A stretch of 54,789 nt of DNA. Source: Oscillatoriales cyanobacterium PMM_0019 (GTDB lineage: Bacteria; Cyanobacteriota; Cyanobacteriia; Cyanobacteriales; CASBRB01). Shown here one piece after another: positions 35,939 to 42,481 of the stretch. The notes beneath the pieces are model-generated. The model worked only from the letters and a program-made list of their open reading frames with translations. It was not told the DNA's origin and made no database searches. The DNA lies in assembly GCA_949127975.1 (NCBI GenBank), contig CASBRB010000089.1:1-54789 (forward strand), written 5' to 3'. Position 1 is the first letter of the stretch. Every line of letters begins with the position of its first letter. The translations under genes were made by a program, and so were the position numbers.

Positions 35939-37465
35939 ATGACTGAAACCTTGTTTAGACCTATCCCAAGAAGAAACCTGCAATATGTTTATGCGCCCAA
36001 GTGTAAACCAAATCAATTAATTTGCGGGCAAGGACAAACAGCGCTCGTTACTGGCTGGACTTTAAAAGAGGCAGTATCTAAACACCTCCAGCCAGAAGAA
36101 TTTGCAGCGATCGGGCATCTCTATAGCCCAACCAGAGGAATTAGTTTTTTAATTAGGAATTTAATCGCTAACCCTCACGTTCGCTTTCTAGTGGCTTTAA
36201 TCGCTACTAAAGAAGATCGCAATGCTGGTGGGTGTAAATGTTTATTGGATTTTTTTCGCTATGGATTCAAAGAGGGAACAACGGATTCTGGGCGAAAATG
36301 CTGGATAATCCTGTCGGAAGTCCCAGGCTATATAGACTTGGAAATTCCAATAGACGTATTAGAAACCTTGAGGACTCATATCCTATGTGAAGAAACTACA
36401 TCAGTTGCTGAGGCAGTAAAGATAACAAAACTTTTTGCTCGAGGAGAAGCAATGCCACCTTGGGGGGAACCGCTTGAATTTGCCATCCCTGAAATAACTC
36501 CAACAATCTTACCAGGAACTAGATATGGGCATAGAATAGAAGGTAAAACGATCGCGGAGACTTGGGTAAAAATCATTCATCGCATTAAAACGACTGGCAC
36601 AATTAGACCGACTACCTATGATGGGCGGTGGCAAGAGCTAATTGACCTTATGGCGGTAGTCACGGATGAACCAGATGGTTTCTTTTTCCCACAACCTAAT
36701 TATTTGCCGATCGAGCGCTCATTCATCGAGCAGTATCTCGATCAGATCTTGGTAGATACTCCCTATAAAGAAGGGGTCAAGTATACTTACGCCCAGCGTT
36801 TGCGATCGTGGTTTGGGTGCGATCAAATAGAACAGGTTATTAAAAAATTGACTGGTGACATTGATTCAGCTAGTGCAGTTATGTCACTCTGGGATGCCAA
36901 AGACCATGATTGGGATGGGGGCAGCCCCTGTCTGAACCATATTTGGATCAGAATAGTCGATGGCGAAATGTCATTAACCGCCACTTTTCGCAGTAACGAT
37001 ATGTTCTCGGCTTGGCCAGCTAACGCAATGGGGCTCCGAGCTTTGCAGCAGCACATCCGGGACGAGATCTCTAATCGTTCCAATCGCGCCCTGCGGTTAG
37101 GACCGATGATTACCATAAGCCAGTCGGCGCATATTTATGATGATACATGGGAAAGTGCCGATCGGATTATCGAGCAGCAGTATTTTAAAAATTGCAAAAG
37201 TAAAGACTATAACGATCCTTGTGGAAATTTTTTAATTGAGGTTGACGGGGAAAATATTGTAGTTAAACAGACTACCTCTGGTAGCGGCGAGGTTGTAGCG
37301 TCTTATGCTGGGAAAGATCCACTGAAATTACTTAAGAAAATTTGTGATACTTCTCCAGCATTACAGGCGGAACACGCTGGCTACTTAGGCATTGAGCTAC
37401 AGACGGCTGTAGCTTGCATACAAAATGGGGGTACATATATCCAAGATAGAGGTTGTTGTTTTTAA
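35939..37465 (+). CDS. Thymidylate synthase-family protein with an MtrA-like N-domain and a DUF4346-like C-domain
   Basis: TS core: YAQRLRSW...DQIEQVIKKL...AVMSLWDAKDH...SPCLNHIWIRIVDGEMSLTATFRSNDMFSAWPANAMGL. The Cys nucleophile and the RSND motif are present. N-terminus: GISFLIRNLIANPHVRFLV. C-terminus: DPCGNFLIEVD...HAGYLGIELQTA...YIQD. Confidence 0.7.
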   Translation: MTETLFRPIPRRNLQYVYAPKCKPNQLICGQGQTALVTGWTLKEAVSKHLQPEEFAAIGHLYSPTRGISFLIRNLIANPHVRFLVALIATKEDRNAGGCKCLLDFFRYGFKEGTTDSGRKCWIILSEVPGYIDLEIPIDVLETLRTHILCEETTSVAEAVKITKLFARGEAMPPWGEPLEFAIPEITPTILPGTRYGHRIEGKTIAETWVKIIHRIKTTGTIRPTTYDGRWQELIDLMAVVTDEPDGFFFPQPNYLPIERSFIEQYLDQILVDTPYKEGVKYTYAQRLRSWFGCDQIEQVIKKLTGDIDSASAVMSLWDAKDHDWDGGSPCLNHIWIRIVDGEMSLTATFRSNDMFSAWPANAMGLRALQQHIRDEISNRSNRALRLGPMITISQSAHIYDDTWESADRIIEQQYFKNCKSKDYNDPCGNFLIEVDGENIVVKQTTSGSGEVVASYAGKDPLKLLKKICDTSPALQAEHAGYLGIELQTAVACIQNGGTYIQDRGCCF

Positions 37466-37632: not shown

Positions 37633-39339
37633 ATGACTAGCTTTAGGCAGGGTAAAATGTTTAAAAATGTTACTTATGCGTTTAGAGAAGGGCTAAGAAA
37701 AATCTTGCAAGAAGGAGAGGTAATTGCAGTGCGATCGCATGAAACCAAGGAAGTGCGATCACATCTAATTAAAATTTCCTCTCCCCTAGAGCGGGTTTAT
37801 CTTATTCCTCACCGAAATAACAACATTTTCGCTCAAATTGCCGAAACGCTGTGGATGATTGCCGGACGCAGTGACATGGCTTTTTTATCACATTACCTGC
37901 CCCGTGCCGTTGATTTTTCCGATGATGGCAAAGTGTGGAGAGGTGCTTATGGTAGTAGGCTGAGAAACTGGCAAGGTATAGATCAAATTGAAGAAGTAGC
38001 GCGGCTTCTCCGTCAAGATCCTAACAGCCGTCGTGCTGTAATGGTGATTTTCGATCCGGCACAAGATTATCTAGACAGTAAAGACATCCCTTGCAACAAT
38101 TGGCTACATTTTCTGATTCGCGATGGGCGCTTGCACCTGAATGTATCTATTCGCTCTAACGATATCTGGTGGGGATTTTCAGGGATTAATACTTTTGAAT
38201 GGAGCGTGCTGCATGAGATGATGGCTTATTGGACGCGATCTAAAGTAGGAGAGTATAGTCACTTTGCTAGTTCTTTCCACTTATACGAACGCCATTACCA
38301 GCCTGCTGAAAAAATAATTGCTACCTCTCAGGATAAAACCTTATATGACTTCGGATTTACTAACCCGCCATTTAGCATCCCATTTGAAGAGTTTGACGAA
38401 GCAATGGTGCGATGGTTTGCCATAGAAGATAAAATGCGTCAGGGTGAGACAAACCTGAGGCAGGAAATCAATAATTTTGATGATAGCTTTCTCAGAAACA
38501 GCCTAGAGATGTTGTATATCTATAATCGCTATCTGCTGGGAGCTGAGGGGGAAGAGATTGCCCAGCTTATAGAAGAGTTGCCGCCTAATGATTTTAAGAT
38601 TGGGGCGATCGAGTATTTTTCTCGTAAGTTAAAAAATAGAGAGTTGGTAAAACTCCAGGATAAAGAGAGAGAATATTTCCAGTATTTCTGGGGAGCGGAT
38701 GTAGCTGATAATTTATCTGTTACAGTACCCGGTAAATCCGTCGTCACCTTTTCATTTATTTTTGCTAAATTAAGCATACTCCACTATAAGAAAAGCCTCG
38801 TCTATAAAGACAGTTGGAAGAAGCACGGCGAGTTGCTGGGAGTTTTTGGCAATATTGCACGAAAGTACGATCGGATAGAAGTAATCATGAAGGATAAAGT
38901 TAAGCCAACTTCTGATGAATCTCTACTGGATACTGTAGCAGATATGGCTGTTTATTTAACTAAGTATATGACCTATCTAGCAGAACATTACCAAACTATC
39001 TTTAAGGAGTTTATCGGGCAATATCCTTCAGTGGAGCCAATTGAACATTACTGGGATAATCAAGGATTTGAGTCTGTAGTGAAAATCCTGATTAGGAGAT
39101 ATGACAATTCTGGGGAGTGGGAGCAGATTTCTAACTACGGCGATTGCTTTGCTGCCCTGAGCAAGAATTATAAAGTACTTGAAGATATCCTGATTAATGG
39201 TGACTGGCGCAGCAGCGATCCGCGAAAATGTTCATTTGCCGCTGATTTAGCTATTAGTGCAATGCATTTTCTGGTGCTGGCGTCACAAAAAGAACCGGAG
39301 AAGTTCCAGAAACTCTTAAGGTATATAGAAATGCTTTAG
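37633..39339 (+). CDS. Thymidylate synthase-family protein fused to a C-terminal all-alpha MazG/DUF1599-like domain
   Basis: TS core: ETLWMIAGRSD...YGSRLRNWQGIDQIEEVARLLRQDPNSRRAVMVIFDPAQD...IPCNNWLHFLIRDGRLHLNVSIRSNDIWWGFSGINTFEW. C-terminus: YKDSWKKHGELLGVFGNIARKYDRIEVI...ESLLDTVADMAVYLTKY. Confidence 0.7.
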   Translation: MTSFRQGKMFKNVTYAFREGLRKILQEGEVIAVRSHETKEVRSHLIKISSPLERVYLIPHRNNNIFAQIAETLWMIAGRSDMAFLSHYLPRAVDFSDDGKVWRGAYGSRLRNWQGIDQIEEVARLLRQDPNSRRAVMVIFDPAQDYLDSKDIPCNNWLHFLIRDGRLHLNVSIRSNDIWWGFSGINTFEWSVLHEMMAYWTRSKVGEYSHFASSFHLYERHYQPAEKIIATSQDKTLYDFGFTNPPFSIPFEEFDEAMVRWFAIEDKMRQGETNLRQEINNFDDSFLRNSLEMLYIYNRYLLGAEGEEIAQLIEELPPNDFKIGAIEYFSRKLKNRELVKLQDKEREYFQYFWGADVADNLSVTVPGKSVVTFSFIFAKLSILHYKKSLVYKDSWKKHGELLGVFGNIARKYDRIEVIMKDKVKPTSDESLLDTVADMAVYLTKYMTYLAEHYQTIFKEFIGQYPSVEPIEHYWDNQGFESVVKILIRRYDNSGEWEQISNYGDCFAALSKNYKVLEDILINGDWRSSDPRKCSFAADLAISAMHFLVLASQKEPEKFQKLLRYIEML

Positions 39340-40877: not shown

Positions 40878-41936
40878 CTAAATTTTTGGCAAAATAACTT
40901 TTTCCGCTTGATCTTGATACTTGCCCTTTCGTTGCTCGTAAGTAGTCTGACAAGATTCTCCTTCTAAGAAAAGCAATTGACAAACTCCCTCCGAAGCGTA
41001 TATTCTAGCATCAGCAGGAGAAGAATTAGAAAATTCTAGCGTTAAGTGTCCCCGCCATCCCGCTTCGGCAGGAGTTATGTTAGCAATAATGCCGCAATTG
41101 TGGACAAAAACTCCGGCAGCGATCGCAAAATTTCCCGCTTCAGGAACCGTTAAGCAATAAACATCATGAATGCCAGGAATATCCTGGACTGACGCAACTT
41201 TATGGTTTTTGACCCCTGTTAGCGGCTGATATACTGTTTCATAACCCCGTGTATTTTCCCGATATAGCGGCATCAAAGAATCATTTGGTCTTAAATCATC
41301 CGCAGGTACCATGCTACCATGCCTTTTCATAAAAAGATGGTCTGGGGTACAAAAAATCGATTCCTCATTATCCAAAGTCACTTTCACCAAGGAATCTCGA
41401 CCAATATAACGAGGGTTTGACAAAAGTGTTATAATTACCAGTCCATTTTTATCTATGCTGTATCCCCAAAAATTCTCCCCTTGCTGGGCCCGCTGGGCCA
41501 TCTCCTCTAAGGTGGGAGAACTGCCATCAACTAAGGCTACACGAGTATCCCCTCGAAAGCAGCGAGCATAAGTAGATTTACCCAGACAAATTACAGTAAT
41601 ATTCTCCGGTATATTTAGATGCTCTAGCGCCACCCCAAGCCCGTAGGATCTTCCCGGCAAGATAAAAAATTCTCCATCGCGATCGCGCTGAAGTTCTCCA
41701 ACCTCCAAATTTTCTGGATTAAACCGCTTGGGATTAACAATTGTACCTGGGATATGTCTAAAAATCCTAAATTCTTTTGGTGAAAGTCTGATATCGTACC
41801 CGTAACTCGAGCATCCAAATGACAACACGGGTATGATATTTGCCTCAAATTCCATACTCCTAACAAGTTTCGGATCGAATGGCTGAATCATTCCTGATTC
41901 AGCCATCTTAGCAATCCAAATATCATTTTTTATCAT
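40878..41936 (-). CDS. dcd: dCTP deaminase interrupted by a mini-intein
   Basis: The exteins are MIKNDIWI...SYGYDIRL...GKSTYAR | CGIIANITPAEAGWRGHLTLEFSNSS. These align with E. coli Dcd GRSSLARLGLMVH...DPGWSGCIVLEFYN. The intein lies between them. Confidence 0.9.
   Translation of the reverse strand: MIKNDIWIAKMAESGMIQPFDPKLVRSMEFEANIIPVLSFGCSSYGYDIRLSPKEFRIFRHIPGTIVNPKRFNPENLEVGELQRDRDGEFFILPGRSYGLGVALEHLNIPENITVICLGKSTYARCFRGDTRVALVDGSSPTLEEMAQRAQQGENFWGYSIDKNGLVIITLLSNPRYIGRDSLVKVTLDNEESIFCTPDHLFMKRHGSMVPADDLRPNDSLMPLYRENTRGYETVYQPLTGVKNHKVASVQDIPGIHDVYCLTVPEAGNFAIAAGVFVHNCGIIANITPAEAGWRGHLTLEFSNSSPADARIYASEGVCQLLFLEGESCQTTYEQRKGKYQDQAEKVILPKI
41097..41561 (-). other. Mini-intein (155 aa, no homing-endonuclease domain) in dcd
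   Basis: Begins CFRGDTRVALVDG (block A, Cys1). Block B is IFCTPDHLF (TxxH). Ends GVFVHN, followed by the +1 Cys (CGII). Confidence 0.85.
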
Positions 41937-41944
41937 GTTCTATT

Positions 41945-42481
41945 CTAAGTACGGTGACTCCGACGAATCTGGGTAATTTGATCCGCTACTTCCAAAATTG
42001 CTGGCGGCATTTCTGGCCCTGTCAAAATAATATCTACATGATGGGGGCGTTCTTCTAGAAAAGCTAGCACTTCCTTTTCTGGAATCAAACCAAAATTAAT
42101 CGCTAAACTGAGTTCATCCAAAACCACTAGGGAATATCTACCCTCAAAAACCACCTTTTGAGTATGTTGCCACAACTGTAGCAAAGATTCAGCCTCAGCT
42201 TGGTCGAGATGGGGAGTATCAATACAGCGGGGCAAGTCGCAGCGTATCCAATCTAAGTGCTGCCCTAGTTTAACGGGATGCTCGCGCCCTTGGTTGATTC
42301 CTCCTTTAAGGAACTGTACCACTAGGACTGGTGTCCCCTGTGCTGCAATTCTCAGCGCTTGCGCCATCACGCTAGTAAAAAAGCTGCGGCAAGAGGAGGT
42401 GAAAACCTGTACTAGCCCTTCAACCTTGTAGGGTAGGGGTGAAGAAGAATTGACAGTGGGGGTTTCTAGCTGGGCAATCAT
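41945..42481 (-). CDS. CobA/CobO/BtuR-family protein with a degenerate P-loop
   Basis: VVQFLKGG...YSLVVLDELSLAINFGLI...VDIILTGPEMPP matches the corrinoid adenosyltransferase family. The GxGKGKTT position reads SSCRSFFT. It ends 8 nt before the dcd start. Confidence 0.7.
   Translation of the reverse strand: MIAQLETPTVNSSSPLPYKVEGLVQVFTSSCRSFFTSVMAQALRIAAQGTPVLVVQFLKGGINQGREHPVKLGQHLDWIRCDLPRCIDTPHLDQAEAESLLQLWQHTQKVVFEGRYSLVVLDELSLAINFGLIPEKEVLAFLEERPHHVDIILTGPEMPPAILEVADQITQIRRSHRT

Follow-up and report, generated by a model that had tools for sequence, protein, structure and literature searches.

A dCTP deaminase gene (dcd) whose catalytic loop is split by a long insert raises the questions of what the insert is, whether its site is new, and whether the enzyme depends on its removal. 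Such a gene lies on contig CASBRB010000089.1 (assembly GCA_949127975.1) of Oscillatoriales cyanobacterium PMM_0019. The whole 54,789-nucleotide stretch analysed is hereafter called the window, and coordinates refer to it. An earlier note on this DNA had read the insert as a class 1 mini-intein at a site that might be new. We confirmed that residues 126-280 of the Dcd precursor form a class 1 mini-intein. It is most probably (roughly 0.9) a splicing-competent one, the decayed remnant of an HNH homing intein at the R/C site, where the slash marks the splice junction. This dcd mini-intein is real but ordinary, a shrunken copy of a published and widespread family.

A class 1 mini-intein splits the catalytic loop of Dcd

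The dcd precursor is encoded on the minus strand by an open reading frame (ORF) at 40878..41936, taken from the ORF list with its translation (352 amino acids (aa) plus stop), which comprises an N-extein, the mini-intein and a C-extein. The Pfam profile PF22769 DCD matched this ORF above its cut-off, and the NCBIfam model TIGR02274 dCTP_deam scored 97.5 bits on the entire ORF (cut-off 92.8). Alignment to E. coli Dcd and to the Dcd structures 4DHK and 3KM3 delimited the N-extein (41562..41936, minus strand) as Dcd residues 1-125, ending in GKSTYAR. The C-extein (40881..41096, minus strand) comprises 72 aa starting from Cys+1 (CGIIANITP...) and holds the Glu of a TLEFSN motif. A database copy of the same Dcd (P0001) is 342 aa long and starts with MAESGM, 10 residues shorter (41907-41936, minus strand). 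The upstream ATG at 41934-41936 (MIKNDIWI...), and with it the 352-aa precursor, is supported because homologs conserve that N-terminus.

Between the two exteins, the intein (41097..41561, minus strand; 155 aa, precursor residues 126-280) reads CFRGDTRVALVDG...AAGVFVHN, flanked by GKSTYAR and CGIIANITP. The coordinates in the earlier note were thus exact, and the intein assignment is far beyond chance. When the insert was searched alone, the Pfam profile PF14890 Intein_splicing gave 68.7 bits (cut-off 35.8, E 6.5e-19), while the NCBIfam models of the intein N-terminal region (TIGR01445) and C-terminal region (TIGR01443) gave 35.0 and 23.8 bits, against cut-offs of 24.5 and 15.6, respectively. 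The HINT fold described below and the junctions of homologs support the same assignment. The Pfam search returned no match to any HNH family, in agreement with the view that the insert is too small to house an endonuclease.

The class 1 hallmarks listed in the earlier note (Cys1, TPDH, and VFVHN followed by Cys) are all present, and most were checked codon by codon on the raw DNA, where they lie on the minus strand. They are the block A nucleophile Cys1 (C126, 41559..41561), the block B motif TPDH with Thr B:7 and His B:10 (T197-H200, 41337..41348), the penultimate His279 and C-terminal Asn280 of block G (41097..41102; codons 41100-41102 and 41097-41099), and Cys+1 (Cys281, 41094..41096). In an alignment of 120 sequences, the best homologs of the precursor in a large protein collection, C126, the terminal Asn, Cys+1 and the block B residues T197, D199 and H200 never vary; 85 of the 120 have a penultimate His, and the others S, R, K, E or Q. 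The PMM_0019 sequence departs from the consensus at 9 of the 160 columns with at least 85% conservation among the other 119 sequences. Five of these deviations belong to the intein and four to the exteins; they are mostly conservative and spare every catalytic position.

The position of the insert within the enzyme was read from a BLASTP alignment with Dcd of E. coli K-12 MG1655, in which Arg125, Ser121 and the TLEFSN Glu correspond to Arg115, Ser111 and Glu138. The earlier note had correctly equated the junction with GRSSLAR/LGL of E. coli Dcd: it falls at Arg115/Leu116, 22 residues upstream of the Glu138 equivalent. In E. coli Dcd, Ser111, Arg115 and Glu138 are catalytic or substrate-binding residues. 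Conceptual splicing yields a 197-aa Dcd that aligns end to end with the intein-free Burkholderia thailandensis Dcd 4DHK (E 7.6e-51), without a gap over the junction, where 4DHK reads CLGKSTYARCGIIVNVTP. An insertion in the nucleotide-binding or catalytic loop, between the Arg115 and Glu138 equivalents, is therefore borne out. Cys+1 is a native Dcd residue, because the intein-free 4DHK reads GKSTYARCGII.

The predicted structure agrees with this picture. An AlphaFold2 model of the precursor was built on the 120-sequence alignment and searched with Foldseek against the PDB. In this model (mean predicted local distance difference test (pLDDT) 87.8), a HINT domain buds from the Dcd fold. Dcd structures were matched across the insert (4dhk, TMt 0.84; 3km3, TMt 0.82), and mini-inteins were matched over about 157-165 alignment columns, namely NpuDnaE, the Mtu RecA splicing domain, Ssp and Npu DnaB, and Spl DnaX. 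The NpuDnaE, SspDnaB and Mtu RecA mini-inteins gave TMt 0.81-0.87 at probability 1.00, with NpuDnaE 4kl5 at TMt 0.86-0.87 and a root-mean-square deviation of 2.3-2.4 A. The possibility, raised in advance, that the insert might be a lineage-specific structural insertion lacking a Hint fold is thus not supported. The solved cyanobacterial mini-inteins (NpuDnaE 4KL5/2KEQ, Ssp DnaB 1MI8, Npu DnaB 4O1R and Spl DnaX 7CFV) are likewise class 1 HINT domains of about 140-155 residues, matched by Foldseek at TMt 0.81-0.87, but they reside in other host proteins and share only 17-22% sequence identity with the Dcd intein. By sequence, the nearest solved intein is that of Pho RadA (E 3.2e-5).

No compositional signal of foreign DNA was found at the insert: GC content is 43.9% in the intein, 40.5% and 42.0% in the exteins and 44.5% in the whole window. 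Recent acquisition as foreign DNA was rejected for want of a GC difference between the intein and its surroundings. Among NCBIfam models, the best match of the intein was NF052663 (RtcB_rel_intein2; E 6.2e-34 over residues 1-115). Since this model describes the intein of an RtcB-related protein, RtcB-like genes may also host the same intein family.

The insertion site belongs to a described family of Dcd inteins

The earlier note had hinted that the dcd insertion site could be new; this did not hold. Cyanophage vB_AphaS-CL131 carries a Dcd (ORF069, gp069) with an intein at residues 133-483 that contains HintN and HNH_3 domains (Sulcius et al. 2018, PMC6293099). This protein was reported to self-excise its intein in E. 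coli, the purified product of about 25 kDa having the size of the joined exteins (PMC6293099). That paper also cites earlier reports of dcd inteins in a proteobacterium and in a member of the Chloroflexi.

In the phage gene sequence, the junctions of gp069 (ATW59337.1) read ICIGKSTYAR/CFTGDTKV... and ...SSGVFVKN/CGIIANLTP. The insertion point, GKSTYAR/C...N/CGIIAN, is thus the same as in PMM_0019, and so is the 72-aa length of the C-extein. The phage intein likewise has Cys1, the block B T..H residues, a Cys at position 4 of block F (F:4), a terminal Asn and Cys+1. The two inteins are homologous in both splicing lobes, N- and C-terminal, and the precursors are 48% and 59% identical over two BLASTP segments. 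They differ in size and lineage: the CL131 intein has 351 aa, an HNH_3 endonuclease and a penultimate Lys, and belongs to a second lineage (CFTGDTKVKLVNG...), whereas the PMM_0019 intein is chromosomal, has 155 aa, no endonuclease and a penultimate His, and belongs to lineage A (CFRGDTRVALVDG...). Because it lacks the HNH domain, the PMM_0019 intein is a mini-intein derivative of the CL131-type family.

The same junction is common in cyanobacteria and occurs in many phyla. All 120 best homologs contain both the Dcd and the intein Pfam domains, and all 120 have the junction GKS[TS][YL]AR/C...N/CG[ILV], with Cys1, the terminal Asn and Cys+1 invariant. The PMM_0019 intein is therefore a reduced member of the described Dcd R/C intein family and not the occupant of a new site.

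Two proteins showed inteins at neighbouring positions of Dcd. P0153 (792 aa) contains two dcd inteins, a large one at GK/S (CLTADTRV...FIVHN/STYAR) in addition to the one at R/C, and P0246 (663 aa) contains a related HNH intein four residues downstream (ARTGMS/C...VFVKN/CLATPLE).

The endonuclease region was lost repeatedly

The length of the intein at the R/C site varies between 152 and 386 aa among the 120 homologs (19 below 200 aa, 33 of 200-330 aa and 68 of at least 330 aa), the 155 aa of PMM_0019 being the second smallest. Full-length lineage-A inteins occupy the same R/C site in, for example, Nostoc sp. UHCC 0702, Aulosira sp. FACHB-615 and Geitlerinema sp. FC II, in host proteins of 576-582 aa that carry the plain source label "dCTP deaminase". 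They are 74-77% identical to the PMM_0019 intein over the 155 intein residues in common, and their exteins are 69-72% identical; for full-length relatives of 383 aa, identity in the shared parts is 72-77%. Full-length inteins hold an HNH motif (THRHH..N..HIRLHN) and a helix-turn-helix-like tail (TGSIRGAARLL.CDRSVFRRFPE), both absent from the PMM_0019 intein.

The extent of the loss could be read from the alignment. Between YQPL(N/T)G and KNHKV, the full-length lineage-A inteins retain about 228 aa that PMM_0019 lacks. In a BLASTP comparison with the 582-aa protein P0002, residues 1-241 of the PMM_0019 precursor match P0002 residues 1-243 and residues 237-352 match P0002 residues 470-582, so that P0002 residues 244-471 (about 228) are deleted. 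The deletion scar, placed by this alignment, is LTGVK at residues ~239-243 (41208..41222, minus strand), where pLDDT falls to 73-81. Same-site mini-inteins have also arisen by loss of the endonuclease region in Merismopedia glauca CCAP 1448/3 (167-aa intein in a 362-aa protein) and in P0042 (152-aa intein), but their deletion end points differ from those of PMM_0019.

A tree of the inteins was computed with FastTree from 155 shared columns and 120 rows; only its starred branches are trustworthy, and CL131 is not among its rows. The tree separates two lineages with 100% support, A with 109 rows including PMM_0019, and B with 11 rows. In its splicing domain, the PMM_0019 intein shares 66-78% identity with lineage A and about 40-48% with lineage B, and the N-terminal signature of CL131, CFTGDTKV, is of the lineage-B type. 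Reduction of the endonuclease region requires at least 29 changes on the tree, at least 10 of them forced by starred branches, and reduced inteins are scattered over it; reduction is thus recurrent and independent. These losses correspond to the decay phase in the homing cycle. The PMM_0019 intein groups with other reduced inteins (support 90), and adds one of the smallest natural copies to a 152-386 aa series of repeated endonuclease decay.

Dcd inteins are patchily distributed and show signs of horizontal transfer

Hosts of R/C inteins cover at least eight phyla. The named cyanobacterial hosts belong to Nostoc, Aulosira, Geitlerinema, Sphaerospermopsis, Fischerella, Spirulina and Merismopedia, and other named hosts are Chromatium, Halochromatium and a Blastocatellia metagenome-assembled genome (MAG). 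A genome scan with the intein alone detected relatives in MAGs labelled Caldilinea, Anaerolineae, Actinomycetota, Armatimonadota, Gemmatales, Blastocatellia, Omnitrophota and various Proteobacteria; those with long enough flanks read GKSTYAR/C...N/CG. Inteins at this site are thus present in many public genomes, usually under the bare source label "dCTP deaminase". For the PMM_0019 gene, the annotation should name both the intein and the mature product of 197 aa.

The survey of empty and occupied dcd alleles proposed in the earlier note was run on the same order, and the expected patchy pattern emerged. The sample comprised 201 genomes, about 119 of them with dcd, PMM_0019 being the sole sampled member of its family. 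A lineage-A intein occupies 12 of the ~119 dcd genes, PMM_0019 included, and G067 (547-aa frame) may add one, so that about 11% are occupied and more than 100 alleles are empty. In the genome whose exteins are closest to those of PMM_0019 in this sample (G045; 82% N-extein and 86% C-extein identity), the site is empty.

Intein identity to PMM_0019 (about 70%) is uncorrelated with extein identity (47-74%; r = -0.02). Sixty-four hosts have exteins less than 55% identical to those of PMM_0019 and yet inteins about 70% identical, while several cyanobacterial-type exteins (67-72% identical) hold lineage-B inteins that are only 40-48% identical. Such uncoupling of the two identities indicates that the intein has moved horizontally from one dcd gene to another. 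This cross-phylum spread may involve phages.

Predicted splicing and the dependence of Dcd on it

In the scheme that we propose, dcd would be translated as a 352-aa precursor with its catalytic loop split at GKSTYAR/CGII. The precursor should be inactive, because a 155-residue domain splits the active-site loop. Cys1 would first perform an N-S acyl shift, trans-thioesterification would then move the N-extein to Cys+1, cyclisation of Asn280 would free the intein, and a final S-N shift would yield the native 197-aa Dcd and the free 155-aa intein. From the sequence, the PMM_0019 intein is very probably able to splice. The family would have spread by HNH-endonuclease homing among bacteria of many phyla and via cyanophages. 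With the ~228-aa endonuclease and DNA-binding region deleted, we infer that the PMM_0019 copy can no longer home.

Only one Dcd-family locus was detected in the genome, a draft of 512 contigs that is 96% complete. A paralog or further copy of dcd, which would render splicing unnecessary, was looked for in this 96%-complete genome, and none was found. Since dcd is single-copy, Dcd activity should depend on splicing, and selection on dcd would be expected to maintain it. We propose that the intein persists only because imprecise loss would destroy the single dcd. The dependence of the enzyme on protein splicing, put forward in the earlier note, is thus supported by the single gene copy and by the gap-free alignment of the spliced product.

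One residue is unusual for a class 1 intein. Position F:4 is occupied by Cys (C261 in DVYCLTV, 41154..41156, minus strand), which is invariant in the 120 Dcd inteins. Standard inteins mostly have Asp at this position, and class 3 inteins have Cys (Tori et al. 2010, PMC2807308; Mills et al. 2014, PMC4031507). In the Pho RadA intein, the residue aligned with C261 is the Asp of VYDLVI, and the GyrB intein from the PMM_0019 genome reads VYDIEV. The solved cyanobacterial mini-inteins (NpuDnaE, Ssp and Npu DnaB, Spl DnaX) also have Asp at F:4, in contrast to the Cys of the Dcd intein. In related inteins collected by an exhaustive phmmer search, a heuristic motif scan found Asp in about 74%, Cys in about 10% and Thr in about 7% of some 230 block F/G motifs, which are rough figures as some motifs are mis-registered. 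Cys at F:4 as a unique feature was rejected on this rough scan, about 10% of related inteins sharing it. A compact mini-intein with Cys1, Cys+1 and Cys F:4 could suit tests of the role of F:4 in a class 1 background.

Several points weigh against splicing by the route and with the consequences described above. Splicing of the PMM_0019 copy is itself predicted from homology, and the sole experimental precedent, CL131, belongs to the other lineage, with a splicing domain about 45% identical and a penultimate Lys instead of His. The Cys at F:4 may make the mechanistic detail differ from textbook class 1. The terminal branch of the PMM_0019 intein is longish (0.22, against a median of 0.074), and the 512-contig draft could hide a second dcd or an alternative route to dUMP.

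The invariance of Cys1, C261 and Cys+1 in the 120 Dcd inteins also invites a redox reading, in which a disulfide among them would form under oxidative or high-light stress, pause splicing and throttle the dUTP/dTTP supply until reducing conditions return. According to reviews, active-site cysteine disulfides sensitise splicing to the cellular redox state (PMC4031507), and in the M. smegmatis DnaBi1 intein H2O2 causes a reversible inhibition via a disulfide of the block F Cys (PMC6195587). The host would be a suitable one, being an oxygenic phototroph with a single dcd in which dUTPase and ThyX were not detected. This reading is by analogy with those inteins. Against it, the CL131 intein spliced under ordinary expression in E. 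coli (PMC6293099), Cys F:4 is shared by roughly 10% of related inteins whose host proteins are unrelated, and no regulatory role is needed for Dcd function because about 89% of same-order dcd genes are intein-free. We therefore consider a redox switch unlikely. A broader form of the idea, drawn from the same analogies, is that the immobile mini-intein might have been retained for a regulatory benefit beyond the hazard of unclean loss, splicing gating the supply of dUTP/thymidine (or 5-hmdU-type) precursors by redox; we judge this improbable.

The same residue could instead point to a class 3-like or hybrid route, in which the F:4 Cys would attack the N-junction or take the N-extein from Cys1 and then pass it to Cys+1. 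F:4 is indeed the position of the class 3 nucleophile (PMC2807308, PMC4031507), and its Cys is invariant in Dcd inteins. Class 3 inteins are defined by the absence of an N-terminal nucleophile and by a Trp(B:12)-Cys(F:4)-Thr(penultimate) triplet (PMC2807308, PMC7664689). Membership in class 3 was rejected, as only the F:4 Cys fits: Cys1 is invariant, B:12 is Phe202 instead of Trp, and the penultimate residue is His in PMM_0019 and variable across the family (H/S/R/K/E/Q) instead of Thr. In addition, grafting the WCT motif on a class 1 intein gave no class 3 splicing (PMC7664689), and such a route is very improbable here. Equally hard to sustain is the idea of a defunct or domesticated HINT-like element that stays in the protein, Dcd working with it or the gene being a pseudogene. 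The lost homing endonuclease and the long terminal branch speak for it, but no catalytic residue is altered, the sequence departs from conserved columns in few places and conservatively, the loop is split between the equivalents of Arg115 and Glu138, and this only dcd of the genome has an open frame with exteins 65-82% identical to those of intein-free relatives.

Genomic neighbourhood and nucleotide supply

Splicing-competent class 1 behaviour, the reading retained above, would mean that protein splicing must precede any activity of the genome's only Dcd, which bears on the neighbouring cluster of thymidylate synthase (TS)-like genes. Two TS-fold ORFs lie on the plus strand, opposite to dcd and about 1.5 kb from it: one at 35939-37465 (508 aa, with PterinBD-DUF4346) and one at 37633-39339 (568 aa). 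They are the only PF00303 (ThyA-fold) matches in the 96%-complete genome, in which ThyX (PF02511) and trimeric dUTPase (PF00692) were not found. Either the housekeeping TS is one of these two ORFs, or the draft lacks the genes. Three cytidine/dCMP-deaminase-fold genes are present elsewhere in the genome, so other dUMP routes are possible. According to the earlier note, the TS-like cluster would rely on this Dcd and, through it, on splicing. Such a dependence is plausible, and the link is helped by one other genome (G016), in which a homolog of the 508-aa TS-like protein adjoins dcd.

On the other side of the gene, an ORF of the CobA/CobO/BtuR family (41945-42481, minus strand) ends 8 nt upstream of the dcd start. 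The same cobO-like/dcd pair was seen in three further families of the order, with or without the intein: dcd is empty in G012 and G016 and carries a mini-intein in G014.

The genome contains further inteins. An 812-aa GyrB ORF includes a mini-intein (CISGDTLV...GVFVHN/S; G000:C184:3772-4239) that shares 41% identity with the Dcd intein, and a contig edge cuts a DnaB intein, of which the C-terminal end is present (G000:C236, 1312-1641). GyrB and DnaB inteins form a usual cyanobacterial set.

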